Below, in pieces: positions 2,856 to 14,112 of a DNA stretch of 14,112 nt; the stretch's first letter is position 1; every line of letters begins with the position of its first letter. The DNA is from Pseudomonadota bacterium (lineage in GTDB: Bacteria; Myxococcota_A; Polyangia; DRWM01). The translations under genes were made by a program, and so were the position numbers. The notes below the pieces were generated by a model. It worked only from the letters and a program-made list of their open reading frames with translations, was not told the origin of the DNA and did not search any database. The stretch lies in the NCBI GenBank assembly GCA_043813155.1, contig JBDRLK010000004.1, forward strand, positions 1 through 14,112, written 5' to 3'.

Positions 2856-4385
2856 TCACCGGGACCTGCGGCGGGCAAGGACCACCAGGACAACGGCAAC
2901 CATCCACAGGAAGCCAACCGATGAAACCGGACCTTGCGGCGACATGGTGCATGCGCACCCCGACCCGACTTCCAAGGACGGCGGCAGGGAAAAATCAGCT
3001 TCGGCATCCCCGCCGGCATCGACGTCAACATCAGGCTCAGCCATGTCGTCAACGTCAGGCTCAGCCACGTCGTCAACATCAGGCTCAGCCACGTCATCAA
3101 CATCAGCGTTCACCCAGTCCTCGGTCATGGCGTCCATGCCGGCATCGGACGCTCCGTCGGGCTCGGCGTCCGGTTCCGTGTAGGCGTCATCATCAGGTTC
3201 GGGCCCGCTGCCGGGCGTGACGCGGATCGCGTCGAAAGCGAGCTGGATATTCTCGGAGACCGGCTCGCCCGTGTTGTCGTTGAGAAGCACGAACTGCTCG
3301 CCGCTCGCGGCGAAGTCGAATGAGCCGATCGGGTTCCATCCATCCACAGCGGTCTGGTCGACGCGCACCGAATCGGTCGTCTCCCCGTGCCGTATATCGT
3401 AGAGGGCCCTGCGGCTTTGCGCGAAACCACCGTCCGTGTAGGCCTCGAGCATGTATCTCCCGGGCGTGGAAAAGATGATGTTCCAGCGGCCCCAGTCATC
3501 CGGCGAAGAGTCGGACGTGGCCGTGGTCCAGATCAAGTGCCCGTCCCATCCCGCGGATTCGTGGTGCCAGTACATTGGCGTTCCGCCTTTCACGAAGCAC
3601 GGCCCGCGCTCGTCCAGGATCCCGCCCTCGGGCGGAAGCGGATCACATGTCGGCAACGGCCCGCCGCCGTCATTGTGTGAGACGAGCGTCATCCTCCTGA
3701 CGAGGTCCTCGTAACCGTCGAACGGTTCGGGCACCACCGCGTTGCCGCCGTACGAGCCGCCGGACCCCGAGCCGCCGACGGTCGAGTCCCGGTGCATTGC
3801 AAAGTGCAGGTGCGTCCCGAAATAAGGACACGAGAGCTCCCCGTTGCACGAGTCGCCCAGCTCGCCGACCTCGGTGCCCATCACCACACTGTCTTCCTCT
3901 GACACATAGACGTCATTCAGGTGGCAGTACATCGTGACGTAACGATGGCCGTCAGCGTTGTAGTCGTGCAAGATGACTACGCGCAGGCCGTAGTTGGACC
4001 AACCGGACGTTGCCCATCCTGCCAGGAGCACCGTGCCGGAGGCCACGGCAAGGACCGGCTGCCCAAGGCCATCGGACGGGTAGTCGGGGAGGGTAAAGTC
4101 GAGAGCATAGTAGTCGTTGGCGTGGCTCGTGTCGTCCGTTGTGGCATGCAGTGACGAACCGCCCGACGGTGAGTAGCCGGCGGAGATATAAACGTTCTCA
4201 CCTGCGAGGAATGGAAGGCGGATCTCGAAGTCAACAGGGAGACTCACGCCTCCCTCGATCGGGGTTGTGATCGCTTCGGCGCCTTGCGTCGCCAGCAGCG
4301 CCGAGACCAGCACTGCCGCCCGGAACCCGGCATGCGCGCTCCCGCGGAGCAGGCGCCCGCGCCGCATGTTCAATCTTCCCTGCAT
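2856..4385 (-). CDS. Secreted M23 (LytM/lysostaphin-type) zinc metallopeptidase with a signal peptide, a C-terminal beta-rich domain, an acidic DVDDVAEP tandem-repeat linker, and a MYXO-CTERM-like Cys-containing sorting tail.
   Basis: Signal peptide: MQGRLNMRRGRLLRGSAHAGFRAAVLVSALLATQGAEA. M23 motifs: SHANDYYALDF (HxxxD-like) ... VVILHDYNADGHRYVTMYCHL ... GTHLHFAMH (HxH). C-terminus: ...GSGCACTMSPQGPVSSVGFLWMVAVVLVVLARRRSR, a Cys motif plus TM helix plus basic tail. The RBS is aaaGGAGtccggccATG, giving a 7-nt spacing. Confidence 0.85.
   Translation of the reverse strand: MQGRLNMRRGRLLRGSAHAGFRAAVLVSALLATQGAEAITTPIEGGVSLPVDFEIRLPFLAGENVYISAGYSPSGGSSLHATTDDTSHANDYYALDFTLPDYPSDGLGQPVLAVASGTVLLAGWATSGWSNYGLRVVILHDYNADGHRYVTMYCHLNDVYVSEEDSVVMGTEVGELGDSCNGELSCPYFGTHLHFAMHRDSTVGGSGSGGSYGGNAVVPEPFDGYEDLVRRMTLVSHNDGGGPLPTCDPLPPEGGILDERGPCFVKGGTPMYWHHESAGWDGHLIWTTATSDSSPDDWGRWNIIFSTPGRYMLEAYTDGGFAQSRRALYDIRHGETTDSVRVDQTAVDGWNPIGSFDFAASGEQFVLLNDNTGEPVSENIQLAFDAIRVTPGSGPEPDDDAYTEPDAEPDGASDAGMDAMTEDWVNADVDDVAEPDVDDVAEPDVDDMAEPDVDVDAGGDAEADFSLPPSLEVGSGCACTMSPQGPVSSVGFLWMVAVVLVVLARRRSR
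3021..3108. repeat. About 3.5 tandem copies of a 24-nt unit, gtcgtcaacgtcaggctcagccac on the + strand. They encode (D-V-D-D-V/M-A-E-P)n in the M23 peptidase on the - strand.
   Basis: Near-identical 24-mers sit at 3021-3044, 3045-3068 and 3069-3092, with a degenerate copy at 3093-3116. The repeat is in-frame and coding, so it is not CRISPR-like: there are no spacers. Confidence 0.85.
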
Positions 4386-4470
4386 GGCCGGACTCCTTTA
4401 TTGGGGATATTAATATAGAATGTTATTTCTGAAAATAAATCAAGGGGTTTCACCAGGTGTCCTTAACCAT
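4386..4470 (-). promoter_or_regulatory. AT-rich upstream region of the M23 peptidase gene with a candidate sigma70-like promoter.
   Basis: The minus strand reads TTGATTtattttcagaaataacattcTATATTaatatccccaataaaGGAGtccggccATG. The hexamers are plausible, but the spacer (~20 nt) is long, so the promoter assignment is weak. Confidence 0.25.
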
Positions 4471-4540
4471 TCCCTTCTCTCCCGCCGCCGCAGTGCGGAC
4501 CCCCGTGAGCCCGGCTCATGACATCTTGACCCCAGCTGTG

Positions 4541-4573
4541 CCTCCCGAAAACTTATTTTCCCTTGGAAAATAG
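4541..4573 (-). terminator. Weak candidate rho-independent terminator downstream of the CCC transporter gene.
   Basis: Inverted repeat tattttcc (4554-4561) / ggaaaata (4565-4572) with a 3-nt loop. On the minus-strand RNA it is followed by AGUUUUCGGG. The stem is AU-rich with only 2 GC pairs, so it is weak. Confidence 0.25.
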
Positions 4574-4630
4574 CAGACAATCTCAACCGATCACAGATGA
4601 AGTTGAAACCGGAAAAAGCGACAGCCCGCG

Positions 4631-6973
4631 TCAAACGAAAATGTTGGCGTCGCCCTTGGACAGGACGATGACGGTAGTCGGGAGCGACTTGAACACGTCG
4701 TGCATGTCGTGCAGGTAGGCGGCGAAATTCAGGGCGTTGCTCTCGGACATGCCGACGAAAACGAGGTCGGCCCGGGCCGACATCCGTTTCATGATCTCGC
4801 GCGGCGGGTCGCAGGACGCGATGACGTCCACGGCCATGGACAGCCTGGCTTTTTTAAGCATGAGCTTGAGGAGGCTGCTTTCCTTTCCGGCGTCCTCGTC
4901 ATCGCCAACGATCCTCAGGAGCCGGACCATGGCCCCCTGCCATGCCCGGTTCAATGTCATGAGGTAGGCGAAGAGGGCCATGAGAGAGCCGTTCCTCTCG
5001 CCCCTCCACCAGACGTCGATGATCCTCTTTCGCCGCTTCCCCTTGACGAAATCCCCCGGTTTCAGGATGGCCAGGTTCAGGCCGTGCGCCCACATGAGGT
5101 GCACCTGCCGGGCCAGCTGCGCCCTCTCCCCCGGGTCGGCGCCCGGCGGTATGGCGATCATGCCCGTGTTCGGCCGCAGGGGGCCGAGGGAATAGCACTG
5201 CAGGAACGATGAAAACGTCTCGAGATAATCGCTGCCCACGACGGCCTCGCCGTAGGCCTGGATCCCCTGGGCGGCCAGGAAATTTTTAAGCTCCCCCAGC
5301 CTGGCCCTGCGCATCTCGAGCCGCTCGCCCTGGTCCATGCCGGGCTCGGCCGAGATGTCCGCGACCGAAAGGAGGCCCCTGCGGCCCTCGATCAGGGCCG
5401 CTATGGTCACGAGCTGAAGCTCGCTCGTCGGGTTGTCGGCCACGGCCGTGAGGATGGGCCGCCAGTTTTTCGGGTGAACGGGCGTGTCGCCCAGAACGAG
5501 CAGGTTGTCCCTTATCTTTGAAAACACGTACCCGCGCTTCGCGTCGCCCCACTCGGTCTTGATGTTCTTGCGCGTCAGGTACATCCAGATCGCGCCCGTG
5601 ACGGCCATGGCGATGAGGGCCGCTGTCTCATTGATCTTGATCATGGCCACGACGCAGCCCACCGTGCCCGTGATCGAGGTGAACTTGTTGGACCACTTGA
5701 ACCCTGGACGGAAGGAGGGGTTTGCGCTGACCGACTCCACGAAAGCGGAAAGGTTGATCATGCCGTAGGCGATGAGGAAAAACATGGAGATGACCTCGGC
5801 CACGGCGTTCAGGTCGCCCGCCCAGATGATGCAGGCCGCCAGGATGAACGTGGCCACCGTGGCGCGGCGCGGCTCGTTGTCCACGCCGTGCCCCTTGGCG
5901 AAAAAATTGAGAAAGCCAAGCAGGCGGTCCCGGGCCATGGACTGGAGGATGCGCGGCGCGCCCAGGAAGCTTCCCAGGGCCGAGGAAAGCGTTGCCGTGA
6001 ACACGCCCAGGATCACGAGCGGGCCGAAGAGGCTCATCTGCTGCAGCGCGCCGAAGGGATCCGCGATGAGGGCCTTCCTGCCGACCGAGCCGGCCATGAG
6101 CCAGATCTGCAGAAGATAGATCGCGGCGGTGAAGGCCACGGCGAAAATAGTGCCCAGGGGTATGGCGCGGCTGGGGTTCTTCAGGTCCCCCGACATGTTG
6201 GCGCCCGCCGTGATGCCGGTCACGGCCGGGAAGAAAATCGCGAAGACCGCCCAGAAGGACATGTCCTTTGTAAAGGCGCTGCCCTTGTTCGCCTCGAGAA
6301 TGGCCTCGTCATAGCTGAGAAACCCTCCGACGATGAAGCTGAGGATGGAGATCACCAGGATGGCGAGAACGATGTACTGGGCCTTGATGGCGATGCCCGC
6401 GCCCTTGAAGGTCAGGACGAACAGGCCGAAGACGACCAGGGTCGAAAGGACCTGCGCCGCGTGCAGCGTCTGCCACAGGGCCCACAGGTCCACGTCGAAA
6501 AACGTGTAGGCCTTGAGAAGCGGGGCGACGATGCTCTCCAGCGCCTCGGTAAACCCGATGACGTAGAACGCCACGCCCACCGCCTGGGCCAGGAAAAGCG
6601 TGATGCCGATGGACCCGCCGAAGTTCAGGCCCAGGACCCTGGAAATCATGAAGTAGACGCCGCCGACCTTGACGTCCGTGTTCGTGGCAATGGTGGATAT
6701 GGAAAAGCTCGTGAGGATCGTGATCATCTTGCTGATGCCCAGGATGACCAGGGCCAGCCACAGGCCGCTCTCGCCCACGACGAACCCCGTGCGCATGAAC
6801 ATGATCACGCCCAGGATCGTCAGCACGCTGGGCGTGAAAACGCCCCCGAAGGTCCCGAACCTTCCCCTGGTCTCCTCCTCCTCGTCCGGGAGTTCGTCCA
6901 GGGAGGTCCTTACCCTGCATTCCCTTTCGCTTTCATCCCGGTCCGGCTGACCATTGTGTTCATTCCCGCTCAT
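4631..6973 (-). CDS. Cation-chloride cotransporter (SLC12/CCC family, APC superfamily) homologue with 12-TM permease core and full SLC12-type C-terminal cytoplasmic domain
   Basis: N-terminus: MSGNEHNGQPDRDE.... TM1 region: FGTFGGVFTPSVLTILGVIMFMRTGFVVGESG (SLC12 signature GTxxGVFxP...NIxGVxxFxR). C-terminal domain: ...HPKNWRPILTAV... (compare KNWRPQLLVL), ...IDVWWRGERNGSLMALFAYLM... (compare IDVWWIVHDGG) and ...TVIVLSKGDANIFV (compare VLLVRGGG.EV). The start was chosen at ATG 6973, preceded by GGAAG; the 1117-aa six-frame ORF is an upstream artefact with no stop. Confidence 0.9.
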   Translation of the reverse strand: MSGNEHNGQPDRDESERECRVRTSLDELPDEEEETRGRFGTFGGVFTPSVLTILGVIMFMRTGFVVGESGLWLALVILGISKMITILTSFSISTIATNTDVKVGGVYFMISRVLGLNFGGSIGITLFLAQAVGVAFYVIGFTEALESIVAPLLKAYTFFDVDLWALWQTLHAAQVLSTLVVFGLFVLTFKGAGIAIKAQYIVLAILVISILSFIVGGFLSYDEAILEANKGSAFTKDMSFWAVFAIFFPAVTGITAGANMSGDLKNPSRAIPLGTIFAVAFTAAIYLLQIWLMAGSVGRKALIADPFGALQQMSLFGPLVILGVFTATLSSALGSFLGAPRILQSMARDRLLGFLNFFAKGHGVDNEPRRATVATFILAACIIWAGDLNAVAEVISMFFLIAYGMINLSAFVESVSANPSFRPGFKWSNKFTSITGTVGCVVAMIKINETAALIAMAVTGAIWMYLTRKNIKTEWGDAKRGYVFSKIRDNLLVLGDTPVHPKNWRPILTAVADNPTSELQLVTIAALIEGRRGLLSVADISAEPGMDQGERLEMRRARLGELKNFLAAQGIQAYGEAVVGSDYLETFSSFLQCYSLGPLRPNTGMIAIPPGADPGERAQLARQVHLMWAHGLNLAILKPGDFVKGKRRKRIIDVWWRGERNGSLMALFAYLMTLNRAWQGAMVRLLRIVGDDEDAGKESSLLKLMLKKARLSMAVDVIASCDPPREIMKRMSARADLVFVGMSESNALNFAAYLHDMHDVFKSLPTTVIVLSKGDANIFV

Positions 6974-7090
6974 GCCTGCTTCCAACGTGGCGCAAATATT
7001 GTATAAACAAAATTCAAGGGCAAAAAAAGGGGTAGGCGAAAAAAATTTACCTCTTGCACTCTTCACGTAAAAGTGCCATGAATTTTCAGG
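6974..7090. promoter_or_regulatory. AT-rich divergent intergenic region between the CCC transporter (-) and the hdrA-like cluster (+); presumably carries both promoters.
   Basis: The region reads ...ttgtataaacaaaattcaagggcaaaaaaaggggtaggcgaaaaaaatttacctcttgcactcttcacgtaaaagtgcc. A candidate -35/-10 pair, TTTACC-16-TAAAAG, lies just upstream of ATG 7091, implying a very short leader and no clear SD. Confidence 0.3.
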
Positions 7091-7978
7091 ATGGGTCCGC
7101 ACGAAAACCACGACAAGGCCGGGAAAACTTTCCGGCCCGCCATTGGCGTCTACGTGTGCCACTGCGGCCAGAATATCGCCTCCAGGGTCGACATCGGGGC
7201 GGTCGTTTCCTTTGCGGCCGGGCTCCCGTCCGTCAGCGCCTCCCGTGAGTACAAGTTCATGTGCTCGGACCCCGGCCAGAACCTGATCAAGGAAGACTTG
7301 AGGAGCGGGCTTGTCAACAGGGTGCTCGTGGCATCCTGCACACCGCTCATGCACGAGACAACGTTCAGGAAAGCGGGTGAGGACGGCGGCATCAATCCGT
7401 TCCTGGTCCAGATGGCGAACATCAGGGAGCACGTCTCCTGGGTCACGGACGACACGGACAAGGCCACCCTCAAGGCCAAGGCCCTGATTTCCGCGGGCGT
7501 TGCCAGGCTCAGGCGGCACGTCCCCCTGGAAAGAAGAAGGCTGCCCGTGCGCCAGGAAGTCGTGATCATCGGCGCCGGCGTGGCCGGCCTGTCCGCGGCC
7601 CTGGCCATAGCCGAGGCGGGGAAAAAAGTCTTCCTCGTCGAAAAGGAGCCCTCCATCGGCGGCCACATGGGATATTTCGACAAGACGTTCCCCACGCTCG
7701 ACTGCGCGGCCTGCACCCTGACGCCGAGAATGGTCAGGGCGGGAAGCCATCCGAACATTGAAATCCTGTCCATGAGCGAAGTGACCGGAATTTCCGGAAG
7801 AACGGGGGACTACACGCTGAAGCTGAAAAAAAGGCCAAGGTATATCGACGAAGAAAAATGCAACGGCTGCGGCGCGTGCTGGAGCAGCTGCCCCGCGGTC
7901 AGGGTGCCTGCCCGCCGGGTCATAACGATCGGCGGAAAGCCAATAGGTGAATCGACGATCGAGCGAACCTGCAAATGA
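7091..7978 (+). CDS. hdrA: HdrA-like heterodisulfide-reductase subunit A, N-terminal portion. It holds the N-terminal Cys-cluster domain, the first half of the FAD/thioredoxin-reductase-like domain, and the first CxxCxxCxxxCP motif of the inserted ferredoxin domain.
   Basis: Motifs follow the order of a canonical HdrA N-terminal half: IGVYVCHCGQNIA...YKFMCSDPGQNLI...VLVASCTPLMHETTFRK...NPFLVQMANIREHVSW (N-domain); VVIIGAGVAGLSAALAIAEAGKKVFLVEKEPSIGGHM (FAD Rossmann); TFPTLDCAACTLTPRM; YIDEEKCNGCGACWSSCP. The gene ends in TGA overlapping the next ATG (ATGA). Confidence 0.85.
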   Translation: MGPHENHDKAGKTFRPAIGVYVCHCGQNIASRVDIGAVVSFAAGLPSVSASREYKFMCSDPGQNLIKEDLRSGLVNRVLVASCTPLMHETTFRKAGEDGGINPFLVQMANIREHVSWVTDDTDKATLKAKALISAGVARLRRHVPLERRRLPVRQEVVIIGAGVAGLSAALAIAEAGKKVFLVEKEPSIGGHMGYFDKTFPTLDCAACTLTPRMVRAGSHPNIEILSMSEVTGISGRTGDYTLKLKKRPRYIDEEKCNGCGACWSSCPAVRVPARRVITIGGKPIGESTIERTCK

Positions 7979-9747
7979 GCGCAACGGTTGACATAGTTGA
8001 CATAGAGGTGGGCGGCAGGGCCATCGCCGCGCCCGAGGGCGCGATGCTGCTGCCCGTGCTCCTGAAAGAGGGCTTCGATGTTCCCCACCTGTGCTTCCAT
8101 GAAAAGCTCAAGCCCTATGCGGCCTGCCGCCTCTGTCTCGTGGAGGTCGAAAAAGGCGGCCGCAGGAAGATCGCCACGTCGTGCAACCATCCCGTCATGG
8201 CCGGGCTCAAGGTTTTCCTGGACACGGACGAAATCCTGGAGCAGCGTAAAAATCTTCTCGAGACCATGCTCGCCCAGGCGCCGGACTCGGAGCAGGTCCG
8301 CCGCTATGCCGCGCGCTACGGCGTGCATGACACGGCGCTGAAAAAACAGGAAGGCAAGTGCATCATGTGCGGCCTGTGCGTCAGGGCCTGCGAGGAAATC
8401 GCGGGCGCCCATGCCATCACGCTCGCCGGGCGGGGCAACTTCAAGACGGTCGATTCCCCCTACGGCGATGTCACGCCCCGATGCATTGCCTGCGCCGCGT
8501 GCGCAACCGTCTGCCCCACGGGCCACATCGAGGTGCGCGACGCAAGGGGAAGGGCCGTTGCGCACGACGAGCTCGTCGTGGGCCCGCAATCGGCCGTGTT
8601 CACACCCACGCGCCAGTCCGTGCCGGCCGTGGCCGTCATCGACCCTGAAAGCTGCATCCACATGCTCACTGGCGGATGCGGGATCTGCCGCGACGCCTGC
8701 GAGCGGGAGGCCATAGATTTCGACCAGAAGGAAGAGACCTCCGAGCTGAAAGCCGGCGCGGTCATCGTGGCCACGGGCTTCGAGCCGTTCGACCCCTCCG
8801 GGCTGCCGCAGTTCGGCTACGGGGTTTTCAACAACGTCATCACCGCGCCGCAGGTGGAAAAGATGTCCAACGCGTCGGGCCCCACGGACGGAAAGATCCT
8901 CACGGCCGAGGGACGCAGTCCCGGGAGCGTGGCCATTGTCCATTGCATCGGTTCGCGGGACAAGAACACGAACGAGCACTGCAGCAAGGTCTGCTGCATG
9001 GTCTCGCTGAAGCTGGCCCATCTCATCCACGAGAAAACGGGCGCGTACGTTACGAATTTCTACATCGACATCCGGGCGGGCGGCAAGGGCTACGAGGAGT
9101 TTTATGCAACAGTAGCGGCGCACGGGGTAAGGTTCATCAGGGGAAAGGTCTCCGAGGTGAGGGCGGGAAGCGAGGACGACCCCGAGGAGAGCGGGAAGCT
9201 CGTCGTGGAGGCTGAAGACACGCTCATCTGCAGGCCGGTTCAGCTTCCCGTCGACATGGTCGTGCTCGCGGTCGGGCTCGAAGCGCGCAGGGACGCCGGC
9301 AGCCTGTCCGGCGCCCTGAAAATCGCCAGGAGCAGGGACGGTTTTTTCATGGAGCGGCACATCAAGCTTGCCCCGGCGCACACGCTCGAGGACGGCATTT
9401 TCATCGCCGGCGCGGCCCAGGGGCCCAAGGACATCCCCGAAAGCGTGTCCCACGGAGCGAACGCCGGGCTCGAGGCGCTCAGTCTCCTGGACAGGGGGGA
9501 GATCGAGCTGGAAGCCAGCATCTCGACCATCGACCCTGACTTCTGCACGGGATGCGGCGTTTGCGAGGCCATCTGTCCTGCCGGCGCAATCTGCGTTGAC
9601 GAAAAGAAGAAAATCGCAAGAGTCGACGAAACAGGCTGCAAGGGCTGCGGCCTGTGCGCGGCGGCGTGCCCGGCGCAGGTTGCGGACCAGAGGGGTTTTA
9701 CGGAGCGGCAGATATGGGCGGAAATCGACGGGCTCCTGATAGTGTGA
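7975..9747 (+). CDS. hdrA: Fusion protein: an N-terminal NuoG/HydA/FdhA-like [2Fe-2S]+2x[4Fe-4S] module, followed by the C-terminal portion of HdrA. The HdrA part holds the second cluster motif of the inserted ferredoxin domain, the second half of the FAD domain with the CxGSRD...C..CC cluster, and the C-terminal 2x[4Fe-4S] ferredoxin domain.
   Basis: N-terminal module: MSATVDIVDIEVGGRAIAAPEGAM...HLCFHEKLKPYAACRLCLVEVEKGGRRKIATSC (Cx10CxxCx15C plant-type 2Fe-2S), then CIMCGLCVRAC and CIACAACATVCPTG. HdrA-derived part: ESCIHMLTGGCGICRDACEREAIDFD; AVIVATGFEPFDP; VAIVHCIGSRDKNTNEHCSKVCCM; FYIDIRAGGKGYEEFY; SRDGFFMERHIKL; IFIAGAAQGPKDIPESV; CTGCGVCEAICPAG...CKGCGLCAAACPA. This region matches a canonical HdrA C-terminal half. 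Confidence 0.85.
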   Translation: MSATVDIVDIEVGGRAIAAPEGAMLLPVLLKEGFDVPHLCFHEKLKPYAACRLCLVEVEKGGRRKIATSCNHPVMAGLKVFLDTDEILEQRKNLLETMLAQAPDSEQVRRYAARYGVHDTALKKQEGKCIMCGLCVRACEEIAGAHAITLAGRGNFKTVDSPYGDVTPRCIACAACATVCPTGHIEVRDARGRAVAHDELVVGPQSAVFTPTRQSVPAVAVIDPESCIHMLTGGCGICRDACEREAIDFDQKEETSELKAGAVIVATGFEPFDPSGLPQFGYGVFNNVITAPQVEKMSNASGPTDGKILTAEGRSPGSVAIVHCIGSRDKNTNEHCSKVCCMVSLKLAHLIHEKTGAYVTNFYIDIRAGGKGYEEFYATVAAHGVRFIRGKVSEVRAGSEDDPEESGKLVVEAEDTLICRPVQLPVDMVVLAVGLEARRDAGSLSGALKIARSRDGFFMERHIKLAPAHTLEDGIFIAGAAQGPKDIPESVSHGANAGLEALSLLDRGEIELEASISTIDPDFCTGCGVCEAICPAGAICVDEKKKIARVDETGCKGCGLCAAACPAQVADQRGFTERQIWAEIDGLLIV

Positions 9748-9756
9748 GCAAGCCCT

Positions 9757-10902
9757 ATGACATGGAGCGATGATACAACAATGACCGGCTATAACCTTCC
9801 ATACGACGAATGTGCCGGCGACGGCCTGCGCACCGTGCTCGAGAAGCTTTTCGAGACCGGGGCCGTCTCTGCAGCCATCGTGCCGCTGGAGAGCAGGGGA
9901 AAGACCAGGCTCGATCTCTGCCTCGTCGGCGCTCGCGGCGCGCTCGAGAAGGCCAGGCCGATAGCGCCCTTTTTCTTCGGCAACAGGGCGCTCGGCGTTT
10001 CCAGGCTCACGCGCCTGGGCGAGCTCCCGGAACGGGCCATCGCGATTCTCAGGCCGTGCGAGGCCAGATCGCTCGTCGAGCTCAGGAAGCTCAAGCAGGC
10101 CGCCTCGGACAACCTGATCATTCTCTGCGTGGATTGCGCCGGCACGGTTTCCGCCGCTGATTACAGGGAGAAGATGGCGAGTGGCTCGGGGTTCCACCAG
10201 CAGCTGGCCCATGCCTTTCGCCAGGGACAGGACCTTGAGGGAGCGCGTGAAGCCTGCTCCATCTGCCGGTATCCCGCCCTGGACAATGAAATCGACATCC
10301 ACGCGGGCCTCTTCGGCCAGGAGGGCTGCGTGCTGCTGCTGCCGGTTTCGGAAAAGGGAGCCGGCCTGCTCGGGGGCCTCGGCATGCAGGAGGCCGGGCA
10401 GCCGGAGCTGGATGCGCGAAAGGAGGCCCTGAAAAAAATCAGGGAGCACAGGAAAGCCAGGCAAGGGGAATGGCTTGCCGCCCTGCCCTTTGCTTCGGGG
10501 GGGGCAAAAGCGCTGGCAGCGCATTTCGATTCCTGCGAGCAGTGCCGGGCGTGCTCCGAGACCTGTCCCGTCTGCTACTGCAAGCAGTGCTACTTCAAGA
10601 TGGCGTCCATGGAAACAGAGCCGGCGAACGTGTTTCTCAAGGCGGCGCACCTGGAGAAAGTGCCCCTGCCCTCCTCGCCTCTTTTCTTTCACCTTGGCAG
10701 GATGACGCACATGGCCCACTCGTGCACCGGCTGCGGCGCCTGCACCGAGGCCTGCCCGTCGGGCATCGACGTGGCAAAAGCGTTCATTGCCGCCGCCGGC
10801 GAGGTCCAGAAAACGTTTGACTACGAGCCCGGCAGAAGCACGGACGATAAACTGCCGGTAACGATTTTCAAGGAAGACGAACTGGAGGATGAAGTAAGGT
10901 GA
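9757..10902 (+). CDS. Iron-sulfur flavoprotein: an FrhB/FdhB-family (F420-hydrogenase beta-like) N-terminal domain fused to a C-terminal HdrC/GlpC-like di-[4Fe-4S] domain.
   Basis: N-terminal half, ...GDGLRTVLEKLFETGAVSAAIV...APFFFGNRA...IAILRPCEARSLVELRK...LIILCVDCAG, parallels the FrhB order Q-DGG...EGAVV / KYTFSPN / AIPCQTMGIR / LLVGIYCMENF. C-terminal half: CEQCRACSETCPV and CTGCGACTEACPSG motifs spaced ~54 aa apart, as in HdrC. The start is ambiguous: ATG 9757 has no SD, and ATG 9781 lies 13 nt after GGAG. The stop TGA overlaps the GTG of mvhD. Confidence 0.7.
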   Translation: MTWSDDTTMTGYNLPYDECAGDGLRTVLEKLFETGAVSAAIVPLESRGKTRLDLCLVGARGALEKARPIAPFFFGNRALGVSRLTRLGELPERAIAILRPCEARSLVELRKLKQAASDNLIILCVDCAGTVSAADYREKMASGSGFHQQLAHAFRQGQDLEGAREACSICRYPALDNEIDIHAGLFGQEGCVLLLPVSEKGAGLLGGLGMQEAGQPELDARKEALKKIREHRKARQGEWLAALPFASGGAKALAAHFDSCEQCRACSETCPVCYCKQCYFKMASMETEPANVFLKAAHLEKVPLPSSPLFFHLGRMTHMAHSCTGCGACTEACPSGIDVAKAFIAAAGEVQKTFDYEPGRSTDDKLPVTIFKEDELEDEVR

Positions 10903-11309
10903 CCGAATTCAATCCAAACATCATTGCCTTCCTGTGCAACTGGTGCTCCTACACCGGGGCCGACCTGGCGGGAACCTCGAGGCTCAAGATTCCCGACTCC
11001 ATCAAGGTCGTCAGGGTCATGTGCTCCTCGAGGGTCGACCCGGCGTTCATCATCAAGGCGCTGCAGGAGGGGGCGGACGGGGTCCTGGTCGGGGGATGCC
11101 ACCCCGGCGACTGCCATTACCAGAAGGGAAATTACTATGCGCGAAGGAGAATCGCCGCTTTGAGAAGCATACTGGGAGCCCTGGGCCTCGAGCCGGAGCG
11201 GGTGCGCCTCGAATGGATCTCGGCGTCCGAAGGCCCCCGTTTTTCACAGGTCACGGGCGAGTTCACGGACGCCGTCAGGCGGATGGGGCCCAGCCCCCTG
11301 CGTGTGTAG
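10899..11309 (+). CDS. mvhD: MvhD (methyl-viologen-reducing hydrogenase delta subunit) family electron-transfer protein.
   Basis: Hallmark Cys pattern: IIAFLCNWCSY...VVRVMCSSRVDP...GVLVGGCHPGDCHY. GTG start with GGAGG 9 nt upstream. A 4-bp GTGA overlap with the preceding gene indicates translational coupling. Confidence 0.85.
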   Translation: MTEFNPNIIAFLCNWCSYTGADLAGTSRLKIPDSIKVVRVMCSSRVDPAFIIKALQEGADGVLVGGCHPGDCHYQKGNYYARRRIAALRSILGALGLEPERVRLEWISASEGPRFSQVTGEFTDAVRRMGPSPLRV

Positions 11310-11342: not shown

Positions 11343-13649
11343 ATGAATGACAACACACCATATTTCCCGGCGGTCGTCATAGGCGGCGGCGTGTGCGGCC
11401 TGCGCGCGGCCTTCGACCTGAAGGACCTGGGCGTGCCCTGCCTCGTCATCGAGAAGAGCGACGCGGCGGGCGGAAAGCTCCTGAGGCTCGAGCGATGGTT
11501 CACCGAGGATTCCTGCGGGCTGTGCCGCATCCTTGACAGCGAGAAGCGCCCTCTTCTTCCCCGGGACGAAGATGAAATCCTGTGCCTCCGCCGCAACGTG
11601 GCGCGGCGCGACATCGACCTGTGGACGGGCTCGCGGGTTGTCGGCGTGAGCCGCACCGGCGAAGGGCTCACCCTTCAAATCGAACGTAACGGCAAAGCGG
11701 CGCAGCAGGTCTCATGCGACGCGGCCATCGTTGCCGCGGGCATGGACGATATCGACATGCATTACCTGTCCCACTTGAGGGCGGGCCTGGATCCCGACGT
11801 GGTTTCGGGGGAGCGGTTCGAGGAGATGATCGCGCGCGCCGCGCAAAAACCCCTGCGCAGACCGTCGGACGGCCGCCGGGTTGAAAAAATCGCTTTCATC
11901 GGGTGCGCCGGGAGCAGGGACGCCGCGCACCCGTGGTGCTCCTCCGCCTGCTGCGGCTACCTGGTGAAAGAAATCAGCCTGCTGGCCGGCGTGGACGGGG
12001 GCATCAAGCCCACCCTCTTCTGCATGGACGTCAGGCTCCATGCCAAGGGCATGCACCCGTACGGTGAAAAGGCGCTGAGCCGCACTCGCGTGGTCAGGGC
12101 CAGGGCCGGCAGCCTGGAGAGGAAGCGCAGCGGCATGCTGGCGGTCCGGGCTGTGAGCGATGAAGCGCTGGAGGAAATCGAGGTCGACCTGGCGGTCCTT
12201 TCAGGCGGCGTGAAACCGGGCAGCGCTGATCTCTTTTCCATGCTCGGCGTGAACACGGACCGGCACGGTTTTCCGGCAGCGCAGGCAGCCGTCAATCCCA
12301 CGGTTACATCGAATCCCTCTGTTTTCGTTGCCGGGGCGGCCAAGACGCCGTGCGATATAGCATCCAGCGTAATGGAAGCCAGGGCGGCAGCGGCCGCTGT
12401 TTTTGATCGGCTGGCGGAAATCAAACCGGACATCACCGGCTTTGCGGGCAAGGGCGGAAGGGCGCTTGTCATCGGCGGGGGCGCGGCAGGGCTCGCCGCG
12501 GCAAAGACCCTGGCCGCCGCGGGCCACGAGGTCACTGTCCTGGAAAAGCAGAATGCGGCCGGCGGCATGAGCACGGACATTCGCATCGACCCGGCCGGCA
12601 GGGACGCGGCAGGCCTCATTGAAGCGCTTGCGGCGGAGGTTGCCGCTGATGACAGGGTCCGTATCCTGAGCAACACGGAGGCAATCGCGATCAATGGAAG
12701 GTTGTGTAATTTCAGCGTGTTACATAACAATTCTTCCACTGCACTATCAGGTCATTTCGACACGGTTGTCGTGGCCGCGGGGGCCTCGTTGCACAGGGAC
12801 GAAAGGCTCGATAATGGAAAGATCATCACCCTGAAGCAGATGGAGTCAAAGCTGCATGCCGGCGACGGCGTGGGGGGCGATGTTGTCTTCATTCAGTGCG
12901 CCGGGTCGAGGGACGCCGACCACCCTTACTGCAACGCGGTCTGCTGCCCAAAGGCCCTGGCCCTGGGAATGGAAATACTGAAAAAGGGCCCAAGGGCCTG
13001 GATCCTCTACAGGGACATGATGACCGCGGGCAGGGACGAAGCCCTTTACACCAGGGCGAGAGAGGCGGGAGTCATCTTCGTACGCTACGAGCCGGCACGT
13101 GCGCCGGCCCTCAGCATCGGCGAGGGCGGCGCTGTCCGCGTCGAGGTGGAAGAGACAACACTGGGACGAAAGCTTGTTCTGAGCCCGGAGCTCGTCGTCC
13201 TGTCGTCGGGGATAGATCCTCCGGCCGGGGTTCTCGCGTCCCTGCAGGTCCCGGTCGGCGGCGACGGTTTCGCCGCCGAGGACGACCCGAGATTCAGGCC
13301 GTGCCAGTCGACGAGAAAAGGCATTTACGTGGCCGGCAACGCAAGATACCCGGCAAGCAGCAGCCAGGCCGCGCTCCAGGGTATCTGTGCCGGCATGGGC
13401 GCGTCGATCCTGGGGGGGCTCGCGAGGACGGTGAGCCATGAAGTCGAGCCGTCCCGTACCAGGGAAAAGCTGTGCGCCGCGTGCGCCGTCTGTGTCGACG
13501 CATGCCCGGCAGGGGCCAGGTTCCTGGACAGCGCGATCGAGCCCACGGCACGTGTCGAGGCCCGCCTTTGCCAGGCCTGCGGTCTCTGCGCAGCAGCCTG
13601 CCCTTCCGGCGCCGCCGTCGTCCCGGGAGCACCGCTTCGAGCGCCTTAG
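11343..13649 (+). CDS. Tandem-duplicated HdrA-like flavoprotein: two consecutive FAD/TrxR-like HdrA core domains plus a C-terminal 2x[4Fe-4S] ferredoxin domain. The HdrA N-terminal Cys domain and the inserted ferredoxin domain are absent.
   Basis: Domain 1: AVVIGGGVCGLRAAFDLKDLGVPCLVIEKSDAAGGK ... EDSCGLCRI ... IAFIGCAGSRDAAHPWCSSACCGY ... VFVAGAAKTPCDIASSVMEARAAA. Domain 2: ALVIGGGAAGLAAAKTLAAAGHEVTVLEKQNAAGGM ... VVFIQCAGSRDADHPYCNAVCCPKAL ... IYVAGNARYPASSSQAALQG. C-terminus: CAACAVCVDACPAG ... CQACGLCAAACPSG. Confidence 0.85.
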   Translation: MNDNTPYFPAVVIGGGVCGLRAAFDLKDLGVPCLVIEKSDAAGGKLLRLERWFTEDSCGLCRILDSEKRPLLPRDEDEILCLRRNVARRDIDLWTGSRVVGVSRTGEGLTLQIERNGKAAQQVSCDAAIVAAGMDDIDMHYLSHLRAGLDPDVVSGERFEEMIARAAQKPLRRPSDGRRVEKIAFIGCAGSRDAAHPWCSSACCGYLVKEISLLAGVDGGIKPTLFCMDVRLHAKGMHPYGEKALSRTRVVRARAGSLERKRSGMLAVRAVSDEALEEIEVDLAVLSGGVKPGSADLFSMLGVNTDRHGFPAAQAAVNPTVTSNPSVFVAGAAKTPCDIASSVMEARAAAAAVFDRLAEIKPDITGFAGKGGRALVIGGGAAGLAAAKTLAAAGHEVTVLEKQNAAGGMSTDIRIDPAGRDAAGLIEALAAEVAADDRVRILSNTEAIAINGRLCNFSVLHNNSSTALSGHFDTVVVAAGASLHRDERLDNGKIITLKQMESKLHAGDGVGGDVVFIQCAGSRDADHPYCNAVCCPKALALGMEILKKGPRAWILYRDMMTAGRDEALYTRAREAGVIFVRYEPARAPALSIGEGGAVRVEVEETTLGRKLVLSPELVVLSSGIDPPAGVLASLQVPVGGDGFAAEDDPRFRPCQSTRKGIYVAGNARYPASSSQAALQGICAGMGASILGGLARTVSHEVEPSRTREKLCAACAVCVDACPAGARFLDSAIEPTARVEARLCQACGLCAAACPSGAAVVPGAPLRAP

Positions 13650-13864
13650 GGCGCACTCAACAATAGATTCACATTTCTGGACGCCGATCCATCCCGGCTG
13701 GCTGCGTTGCTGCACCCCGCCACTCGTCGGCGTAGAACGACTACGCCTCCGTCGTGACGGGGACCCCGCGCCTTGCCAGCCGGGCGCCTCGGCGTCCAGA
13801 AAATATCATTGCATGTAATGAGAACATTAGCCCACATTCTGTGAATCTATTGTTGAGTGCGCCC
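13649..13864. mobile_element. MITE-like non-autonomous element (216 bp). It has perfect 25-bp terminal inverted repeats, GGGCGCACTCAACAATAGATTCACA, is flanked by a 3-bp TTA direct duplication, and carries nested internal palindromes.
   Basis: IR-L at 13649-13673 is the exact reverse complement of IR-R at 13840-13864. TTA occurs at 13646-13648 and 13865-13867. Internal inverted repeats: tttctggacgcc (13674-13685) / ggcgtccagaaa (13791-13802), and cccggctggc (13693-13702) / gccagccggg (13775-13784). There is no ORF of meaningful size inside. The element abuts the TAG stop of the hdrA-like gene at 13647-13649. Confidence 0.55.
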
Positions 13865-14112
13865 TTAGTACAACGCCCCGCAAGTTAGGGACCAGCCTTG
13901 TAGCGAGGCCGCGGATGTGGAGCCGGATCGCGAGCGCGCCCGCAGCGCCCGATGGAGGCGTAGCAGGGCTACATCGACGAGGGCGCGAGGACGAAAGCCG
14001 CAAAGTGCACCCCACGGAAGCCATTTCGTCTGGAACGATTTTCCGCTTCCGCAGGGACCCCGCCTCATTGCCCACAGGCGCGGCCGCAGTAGAGTGGTGG
14101 TCCCTGATTTGC

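Follow-up and report, generated by a model that had tools for sequence, protein, structure and literature searches.

An open reading frame (ORF) list and its translation were used to examine a window of 14,112 nt, the whole stretch of contig JBDRLK010000004.1 analysed here, from a genome deposited as a Pseudomonadota bacterium. A 768-aa protein is encoded at bp 11343 to 13649 on the plus strand, beginning with an ATG start codon. The product of this gene is identical to a protein already deposited from a metagenome-assembled genome (MAG) under the name "FAD-dependent oxidoreductase [Pseudomonadota bacterium]" (P0001, 768 aa). A reading made from the sequence alone had described it as two HdrA-type units binding flavin adenine dinucleotide (FAD), followed by one di-cluster ferredoxin domain, and the translation, a motif scan and matches to HdrA confirmed this description. 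The gene is referred to here as the fused HdrA gene; its features and those of its neighbours are collected in Table 1.

Table 1. Coordinates of the fused HdrA gene, its sequence features and the genes beside it. Positions refer to the window, except in the last row, where they refer to loci L010 to L012.
Feature	Position	Strand	Evidence
Type I HdrA, two overlapping genes (7091-7978, 7975-9747), with HoxU/NuoG-like module	7091..9747	+	NCBIfam HdrA2 positions 2-258 and 240-639; Fer2_4, NuoG/HoxU matches
FdhB/FrhB-like iron-sulfur (probably flavo-) protein	9757..10902	+	PDB FdhB 7bkb_E, E = 1.6e-18 over residues 96-377
mvhD, MvhD/FlpD [2Fe-2S] adaptor, 33 nt upstream of fused HdrA	10899..11309	+	Pfam FlpD E = 9e-55
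Fused (two-unit) HdrA-like flavoprotein gene, 768 aa	11343..13649	+	ORF translation, P0001 identity, NCBIfam and PDB HdrA matches
Unit 1, residues 1-360, A-type thioredoxin-reductase-like FAD unit	11343..12422	+	5odc alignment, neighbour-joining tree
Unit 1 FAD Rossmann motif G14-G-G-V-C-G19	11382..11399	+	Motif scan; Pfam and NCBIfam Rossmann matches
C58-G-L-C61 pair and C81, in a loop	11514..11585	+	5odc position mapping; clade alignment; AlphaFold2 pLDDT
E160, equivalent of HdrA E356, flavin N5 environment	11820..11822	+	Alignments
Unit 1 [4Fe-4S] motif C188-AGSRD...C199-x3-C203-C204	11904..11954	+	5odc alignment; equals HdrA C386/C399/C403/C404
K209, equivalent of HdrA K409 (bifurcating-flavin lysine)	11967..11969	+	Alignments and literature
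Short inter-unit linker, about residues 361-371	12423..12455	+	AlphaFold2 helix 339-360, then strand 373-377
Unit 2, residues 372-700, B-type thioredoxin-reductase-like FAD unit	12456..13442	+	HdrA alignment, B clade
Unit 2 FAD Rossmann motif G378-G-G-A-A-G383	12474..12491	+	Pfam, motif scan
Unit 2 [4Fe-4S] motif C519-AGSRD...C530-x3-C534-C535	12897..12947	+	Motif scan, HdrA alignment, clade alignment
A540 at the K409 position, unit 2 lysine lost	12960..12962	+	HMMER and MAFFT alignments agree
R650-F-R652-P653, the (K/R)-x-R-P motif (HdrA K524-L-R526-P527)	13290..13301	+	Cores alignment
C-terminal 2x[4Fe-4S] ferredoxin domain, C711/714/717/721 and C743/746/749/753	13455..13622	+	Pfam Fer4_7 at 711-757
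Recurrent module in unrelated uncultivated lineages	L010 1-10314; L011 1688-10711; L012 450-10972

Domains present and absent in the fused HdrA

Each unit was found to possess its own GxGxxG motif, its own CxGSRD...Cx3CC cysteines and its own VAG block, as the sequence-only reading had proposed. The FAD motif runs GGGVCG ...IEK...GGK in unit 1 and GGGAAG ...LEK...GGM in unit 2, and the conserved C-terminal blocks are VFVAGAA (residues 327-333) and IYVAGNA (residues 661-667), respectively. The same reading had assigned a Cys pair to unit 1 and no equivalent to unit 2, and this also proved correct: C58/C61 are in unit 1, and no Cys pair follows the Rossmann motif of unit 2. Both units keep dinucleotide motifs and the strongest Pfam Rossmann matches fall in unit 2, at residues 373-482, so that the possible failure of unit 2 to contain a FAD-binding fold, which would have undercut the idea of a pseudo-dimer, was not seen. 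The ferredoxin domain spans residues about 705-760 and aligns to the C-terminal ferredoxin domain of HdrA.

The alignments that had been suggested, unit against unit and unit against HdrA, were carried out. Units 1 and 2 share 27% identity over 171 aa (BLASTP, E = 2e-10), and both halves of the protein match HdrA. NCBIfam HdrA2 matched the protein in four stretches with 288.8 bits; its NCBIfam HdrA scores of 203-289 bits lie far under the cut-offs of 1100-1400. Solved HdrA chains in the PDB were matched using HMMER with E from 5e-52 to 2e-39 (9sfi, E = 5e-52; 5odc, E = 2e-46; 8rvv and 7bkb), and in these alignments both query halves map onto the one thioredoxin-reductase domain of HdrA. On 5odc, residues 10-63 of unit 1 fall on HdrA 146-199 and residues 127-358 on HdrA 323-566, placing C58/C61 at HdrA C194/C197, while residues 513-758, beginning within unit 2, correspond to HdrA 380-632. 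Both Cys4 sets (C188/199/203/204 and C519/530/534/535) align to HdrA C386/399/403/404. The marks of the HdrA superfamily, namely the FAD Rossmann GxGxxG with its acidic residue and GG, the Cys4 motif and an HdrA-type fold, are all present, and the homology of both units to HdrA is far beyond chance.

Two domains of HdrA are missing from the protein. By the mapping to 5odc, the FAD Rossmann fold is the first element of unit 1, which therefore has no N-terminal Fe-S domain, and unit 2, following a linker of approximately 11 residues, again lacks one. When the N-terminal [4Fe-4S] domain of the window's own upstream HdrA was used as a phmmer query, no match was found in the 768-aa protein; the same query does match relatives of approximately 1000 aa, in which a N-terminal-type domain of approximately 120 aa occupies the position of the inter-unit linker. 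The ferredoxin domain of approximately 80 aa that is inserted in HdrA is likewise absent from unit 1, where residue 63 corresponds to HdrA 199 and the alignment resumes with residue 127 at HdrA 323. The span from GxGxxG to CxGSRD is 174 residues in unit 1, compared with more than 215 in relatives bearing the insert. The missing N-terminal-type cluster domain and the missing inserted ferredoxin are the unusual points of this protein.

These absences, together with the presence of two units, ruled out a type I HdrA. An HdrL orthologue was ruled out since neither a Fer4_20 nor a GltD-specific match was obtained and a length of 768 aa leaves no room for that module. A QmoB orthologue was ruled out on architecture, there being no FlpD domain, and the protein is set apart from Qmo by architecture alone; a match with QmoB-like architecture (P0035) reached E = 2e-12 only. 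The sequence-only reading had further called the protein distinct from QmoA/QmoB and from a canonical HdrA encoded upstream. By its domains the protein is neither QmoB-like (it has no MvhD domain) nor a type I HdrA, and the "canonical" upstream HdrA turned out to be split into two overlapping genes.

Family membership and the two kinds of unit

An exhaustive HMMER search over 1.84 billion representatives, which stand for clusters at 50% identity, returned 4521 matches, 618 of them below 1e-30. A motif (regex) census was carried out on the best 150 of these representatives, and at least 117 of the 150 contain two HdrA units. Fused HdrAs are therefore widespread, with biochemistry available for BamE alone. 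The commonest form is 950-1050 aa in length and consists of an A unit with a Cys pair and an inserted ferredoxin, a N-terminal-type domain, a B unit and a C-terminal ferredoxin. Other fused forms are 1300-1500 aa long and carry a long N-terminal extension; one of these relatives (P0010, 1318 aa) has a GltD-type Fer4_20 domain, as in HdrL. The minimal architecture seen in the window occurs in about 9-13 of the 150 representatives, and forms without just one of the two accessory domains are also present among them. A single full-length alignment to the query was obtained for P0050 (44% identity), P0051 (39%), and P0057, P0061, P0105, P0107, P0112 and P0136 (32-35%). Relatives of the approximately 1000-aa type are 31-38% identical overall, the best stretch being unit 2 plus the ferredoxin, and residues from about 370 to 760 are 33-37% identical to the C-terminal unit of both the approximately 1000-aa and the 1300-1500-aa fused HdrAs.

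The protein belongs to a small clade of six sequences with 39-100% identity (P0001-P0004, P0050 and P0051), drawn from a collection of 5.8 billion sequences and from the library of 1.84 billion representative proteins. Independent samples yielded the same architecture over the full length at 85, 57, 54, 44 and 39% identity, with the cofactor cysteines all kept. Among the 185,579 species genomes of GTDB no close relative was found, only forms of approximately 1100 aa from Desulfobacterales at 34-36% identity (loci L002-L006).

A neighbour-joining (NJ) tree was built from 71 thioredoxin-reductase cores, comprising 31 A units, 31 B units and 9 single units. All A units, unit 1 among them, group on one side with the single-unit HdrAs, and the B units, with unit 2, all fall together in a clade apart. 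The A and B clades are congruent across the 31 fused proteins, and the six-member clade is placed congruently in the two halves of the tree. These results indicate that the fusion is old and common to the family, and not a duplication particular to this gene. The word "tandem-duplicated", which the sequence-only reading had applied to this protein in particular, is consequently misleading, as the units belong to two old and distinct clades of the whole family. The remaining minimal forms are scattered among fuller ones, implying repeated domain loss or gain.

The idea of a covalent pseudo-dimer had also been reached before. It was proposed by Chadwick et al. in 2022 for the fused HdrAs of anaerobic methanotrophic (ANME) archaea and Moorella, in which Cys197 and the N-terminal domain are complementary (PMC9012536). 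Two-domain HdrAs have since been classed as type II and argued to have arisen by fusion of two distinct type I classes, in a survey according to which type II HdrA has seen no biochemical work (PMC12054007). Most directly, BamE of the class II benzoyl-CoA reductase was observed by cryo-electron microscopy (cryo-EM) and described as "a fused HdrA dimer" (2026 bioRxiv preprint 10.64898/2026.04.10.717634). The 768-aa protein has the marks of these fused HdrAs, that is, an A-type and a B-type unit, a CxxC and a lysine on one side only, and a C-terminal ferredoxin with mvhD alongside. It is a domain-reduced member of the fused-HdrA family, to which archaeal type II HdrA, the tandem core of HdrL and BamE belong. 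The picture of that family is unchanged by it; the protein is useful context and not a surprise.

The two flavin sites were expected by the sequence-only reading to have diverged, and they have: K209 stands against A540, the Cys pair is one-sided, and (K/R)-x-R-P is found in unit 2. HdrA residues K409 and E356 have been used as markers of the bifurcating flavin (PMC12054007). In an alignment of the cores, the E356 position is Glu in 31 of 31 A units and in 22 of 31 B units, and the K409 position is Lys in 30 of 31 A units and in 16 of 31 B units. Unit 1 carries both residues (E160 and K209), whereas unit 2 carries E501 but A540, the K409 column of unit 2 in the six clade sequences reading A, A, A, R, T and K. 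The opposite holds for the HdrA motif H-P-K524-L-R526-P, in which neither K524 nor R526 is kept by any A unit, while B units have K or R at K524 (30/31) and largely keep R526 as R (25/31). A units therefore keep E356, K409, CxxC and GPKDI, and B units keep K524/R526/P527 without CxxC and with K409 often lost. Such reciprocal decay is what would be expected if both units jointly build one complete site, and the alignment suggests that each fused protein has one composite flavin site.

Within the six-member clade, C58, C61, C81, the two Cys4 sets and the eight ferredoxin cysteines are invariant; the unit 1 Cys4 set is also invariant in alignment A1. C81, which occurs in the context C-L-R-R, represents a third Cys widespread in A units of the wider family. 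A fourth Cys that could join C58/C61/C81 as a cluster ligand was sought in the clade, and of C125, C337, C654 and C682, each kept in part of it, none is invariant.

An AlphaFold2 (AF2) model was built on a 26-sequence alignment, giving a mean predicted local distance difference test (pLDDT) of 83.9 and a predicted template modelling score (pTM) of 0.86. Values of pLDDT under 50 are found in the Cys loop (residues 50-59 and 63-88), at residues 698-700 just before the ferredoxin, and at the C-terminal end. As a property of the model, the pTM of 0.86 favours a fixed placement of the units relative to each other. A Foldseek comparison with the PDB matched HdrA chains at E about 1e-27 with a query TM-score (TMq) of about 0.40, equal to one unit's worth. 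The best per-unit match was sHdrA 6tjr_A, with a target TM-score (TMt) of 0.84 and a root-mean-square deviation of 2.4 A, in which the aligned unit may be either 1 or 2.

The operon and its surroundings

The fused HdrA gene is the last of five in an operon that runs, in order, from the two genes of the split type I HdrA through the FdhB-like gene and mvhD. Relatives of the FdhB-like protein contain Pfam FrhB_FdhB_C and bear the names formate dehydrogenase beta or F420 dehydrogenase beta. The two split-HdrA genes overlap by ATGA, with the break falling within the inserted ferredoxin domain, and the second gene opens with a HoxU/NuoG-like module of about 140 aa containing a [2Fe-2S] and two [4Fe-4S] clusters. 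Both the split and the module are kept in L001 and L009 and are absent from the unsplit 656-aa HdrA of L011.

All five genes are kept in L001, where the fused HdrA is 85% identical, and in L009 (44%), these being the two relatives with enough flanking sequence. The part comprising the FdhB-like gene, mvhD and fused HdrA is kept on the short contigs L007 (57%) and L008 (54%). L009 and L001 share further synteny that includes a sigma-54 response regulator, a protein kinase, a M50 peptidase, ScpA, ScpB and GlyQ. The named proteins nearest to the GlyQ of L001 reach at most 73% identity and come from a "Deltaproteobacteria bacterium", Nitrospiraceae and NC10. Elsewhere, a module in which a minimal fused HdrA is encoded together with a type I HdrA, MvhD and a FdhB-like protein was found around P0136 in L010, P0105 in L011 and P0057 (Altiarchaeota) in L012. 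mvhD adjoins the fused HdrA gene in L001, L007, L008, L009 and L012, and the FdhB-like gene intervenes in L010 and L011. HdrBC or HdrD (CCG-domain) genes lie alongside the module in L010-L012, accompanied in L011 by a DsrE gene. The recurrence of this module in bacteria and in an Altiarchaeota genome points to a conserved soluble redox complex. Neither qmoC, apr or sat genes nor BamB/C/D/G/H/I genes were found in the window.

Several other features were noted around the operon. A gene for a sigma-54 response regulator follows the fused HdrA gene after 95 nt in L001 and after 38 nt in L008. A sigma-54 promoter for the operon was considered and rejected: one match with two mismatches, at bp 6988-7003, was not above chance and was not kept in L001 or L009. 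The 45 nt upstream of the first hdrA gene (bp 7046-7090 of the window; about 4995-5040 of L001) are near-identical in the two loci and include an imperfect palindrome, TTGCAC-N13-GTGCCA. In L009, the operon is preceded at a distance of 130 nt, and on its own strand, by a gene (bp 4204-5664) for a 486-aa protein resembling class I pyridine-nucleotide disulfide oxidoreductases (Pyr_redox_2 and Pyr_redox_dim); such a gene is absent from the window and L001. A 29-nt inverted repeat that is 97% complementary (bp 13645-13673 and 13840-13868) starts at the stop codon with which the fused HdrA gene ends. Its arms flank 166 nt, and it might represent either a small mobile element or a long hairpin. At bp 3020-3106, within a 509-aa ORF on the minus strand (bp 2856-4385), three tandem 24-nt repeats encode an acidic DVAEPDVD-like peptide near the C-terminal part.

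Proposed function and comparison with known systems

According to the preprint, both thioredoxin-reductase domains of BamE bind FAD. In the first (TrxR1), Lys280 lies 3.4 A from the flavin N5 and the flavin is bifurcating; the flavin of TrxR2 is non-bifurcating, is not at the branch point, and was judged mainly structural. Cys59 and Cys62 form a disulfide that is located between cluster E3 and the FAD that bifurcates. Clusters E1 and E2, in the C-terminal ferredoxin, form the input side, beside the MvhD-like BamF, and electrons leave either through E4 to the HdrBC-like BamD or through E3, E5 and E6 to the low-potential output (10.64898/2026.04.10.717634).

The reading we prefer, to which we assign a probability of roughly 0.6, is that the 768-aa protein would be a covalent HdrA heterodimer, a domain-reduced fused HdrA whose unit 1 flavin is the reactive one and whose low-potential electron leaves via the Cys loop. 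Its structural statement is strong and its assignment of a partner weak. The hard-wired, heterodimer-like pair imagined by the sequence-only reading draws support from the pTM of the model, the reciprocal loss of motifs and the cryo-EM of BamE, and probably exists on those grounds. By analogy with BamE and HdrA, electrons from the co-encoded MvhD [2Fe-2S] cluster would enter the C-terminal ferredoxin clusters and pass to the unit 1 flavin, which would act as a bifurcation-type flavin with the unit 1 cluster as one outlet. The flavin and cluster of unit 2 may be mainly structural or a relay. Since the domain-reduced protein has no equivalents of BamE E3, E5 and E6, a low-potential electron would have to exit via the C58/C61(/C81) loop to another subunit, or else no bifurcation occurs; the putative route would end at, or pass through, that loop. 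The type I HdrA is the obvious candidate for the partner, as it is always present, carries a N-terminal cluster domain and has, within this clade, a ferredoxin arm of increased size. The most likely partner would be this always-accompanying split protein, with the alternative that the 768-aa protein is only a relay. The fused HdrA would act together with the type I HdrA, the FdhB-like protein and MvhD as one conserved soluble module.

Several points weigh against this reading. Lacking E3, E5 and E6 equivalents, the protein cannot run the low-potential route of BamE and HdrA as described. No HdrBC or HdrD (CCG-domain) gene was found in the operon of the window, L001 or L009, although such a partner could be encoded elsewhere in the genome. 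The evidence on BamE comes from a preprint, and the equivalence of C58/C61 to BamE C59/C62 and of K209 to Lys280 was drawn by position and through the shared HdrA alignment, not from BamE's own sequence; when the residue numbers published for BamE were used to look for it in the set of retrieved proteins, no clear candidate emerged. The packing of the two units like an HdrA dimer, the distances between cofactors and the occupancy of unit 2 by FAD are features that we infer by analogy.

The alternative that deserves most attention, though we consider it rather unlikely, is a non-bifurcating relay like Qmo or sHdrA, in which electrons would pass between MvhD or the FdhB-like protein and a partner at ordinary potentials, the low-potential outlet having been lost. 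The absence of both accessory domains, the minimal sHdrA 6tjr_A as best single-domain structural match, and an operon encoding no CCG-domain subunit all fit a relay. It accounts poorly for the retention in unit 1 of E160, K209 and CxxC, which are the literature marks of the bifurcating HdrA flavin, and for the invariance of C58, C61 and C81 in the clade; moreover, the complete type I HdrA that always lies beside the gene could supply the missing branch. A more elaborate scheme would combine the minimal fused HdrA with the split type I HdrA in one assembly, the C58/C61/C81 loop passing a low-potential electron to the type I HdrA, so that, in a bacterium whose operon has no HdrBC, two bifurcating flavins would work in series with input from the FdhB-like protein and an acceptor other than heterodisulfide. 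This we regard as a long shot.

Slightly less probable still is that both flavins are catalytic, giving two bifurcation sites per polypeptide, as was suggested for archaeal type II HdrA in the 2025 survey (PMC12054007), which reports that 75% of type II sequences carry the two marker residues. FAD motifs, a Cys4 cluster and a Glu equivalent to E356 are indeed present in both units of the 768-aa protein, but unit 2 has Ala at the K409 position in a clade where that column varies, it has no Cys pair, and the second flavin of BamE is neither bifurcating nor at the branch point. Finally, the head-to-tail arrangement of the units with only a linker of some 11 residues between them might recall a gene that has no fixed function, be it a recent tandem duplicate, a chimera of the assembly or a gene in decay. 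A recent duplication was ruled out by the low identity between the units (only 27% over the aligned 171 aa) and their separate, old A and B clades; with the architecture recurring at five levels of identity down to 39%, cofactor cysteines kept, and the operon conserved, this whole group of explanations has next to no credibility.

As a natural minimal version consisting of two flavin units, two clusters, a CxxC loop and an entry ferredoxin, the protein is a handy object for finding out which parts of the HdrA dimer bifurcation needs. It also allows one to ask what purpose the second, degenerate flavin serves.

Known systems resemble the 768-aa protein to different degrees. In the QmoA/QmoB pair of sulfate reducers, two different HdrA-like flavoprotein units work with a MvhD-type module, as they would here. 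The two Qmo units are separate proteins, and QmoB has a C-terminal fused MvhD and a N-terminal domain; in the window the units are fused, MvhD is a separate gene and the Qmo-associated genes are not nearby, a distinction made without direct sequence comparison. The sHdrA of Hyphomicrobium denitrificans (6tjr) is similarly minimal, an approximately 340-aa unit with FAD and one [4Fe-4S] cluster and with neither N-terminal nor ferredoxin domains. It consists, however, of one unit only, pairs with a second copy of itself as a homodimer and takes part in sulfur oxidation together with sHdrBC and lipoate-binding proteins, whereas here two different units are fused in another context.

HdrL, known from Desulfobacterium autotrophicum and relatives, is a HdrA/GltD fusion (PMC2702500). 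The relatives of 1300-1500 aa hold two HdrA units by the regex census, their C-terminal unit aligns to unit 2 plus ferredoxin at 31-37% identity, and mvhD lies next to the gene, before or after it. Unlike the 768-aa protein, HdrL possesses a GltD/NfnB-like NAD(P)H module (Fer4_20). Archaeal type II HdrAs (A3/A4 and variants; PMC9012536, PMC12054007) likewise have two thioredoxin-reductase domains from the fusion of two HdrA classes and a Cys197-type residue in one unit only, and they cluster with MvhD, FdhB and, in some or often in many cases, an extra type I HdrA. In A3/A4 it is the N-terminal unit that bears the N-terminal Fe-S domain, and this unit is without Cys197. In the 768-aa protein the Cys pair belongs to the N-terminal unit and both units are without a N-terminal domain; here also, neither a molybdopterin-family nor a HdrBC gene adjoins, and the host belongs to an uncultivated bacterial lineage.

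BamE of Geobacter metallireducens differs in having a N-terminal-type cluster (E3) and an inserted ferredoxin (E5/E6) feeding low-potential electrons to BamBC, both of which the 768-aa protein lacks. In both proteins a single chain combines a pair of thioredoxin-reductase units of the HdrA type, and each unit has a FAD with a [4Fe-4S] cluster next to it, or the motifs for them. The first unit carries the N5 lysine and the CxxC with nearly the same numbering (59/62 in BamE, 58/61 here), the second flavin is without the lysine, and the C-terminal two-cluster ferredoxin domain stands beside a MvhD-type adaptor.

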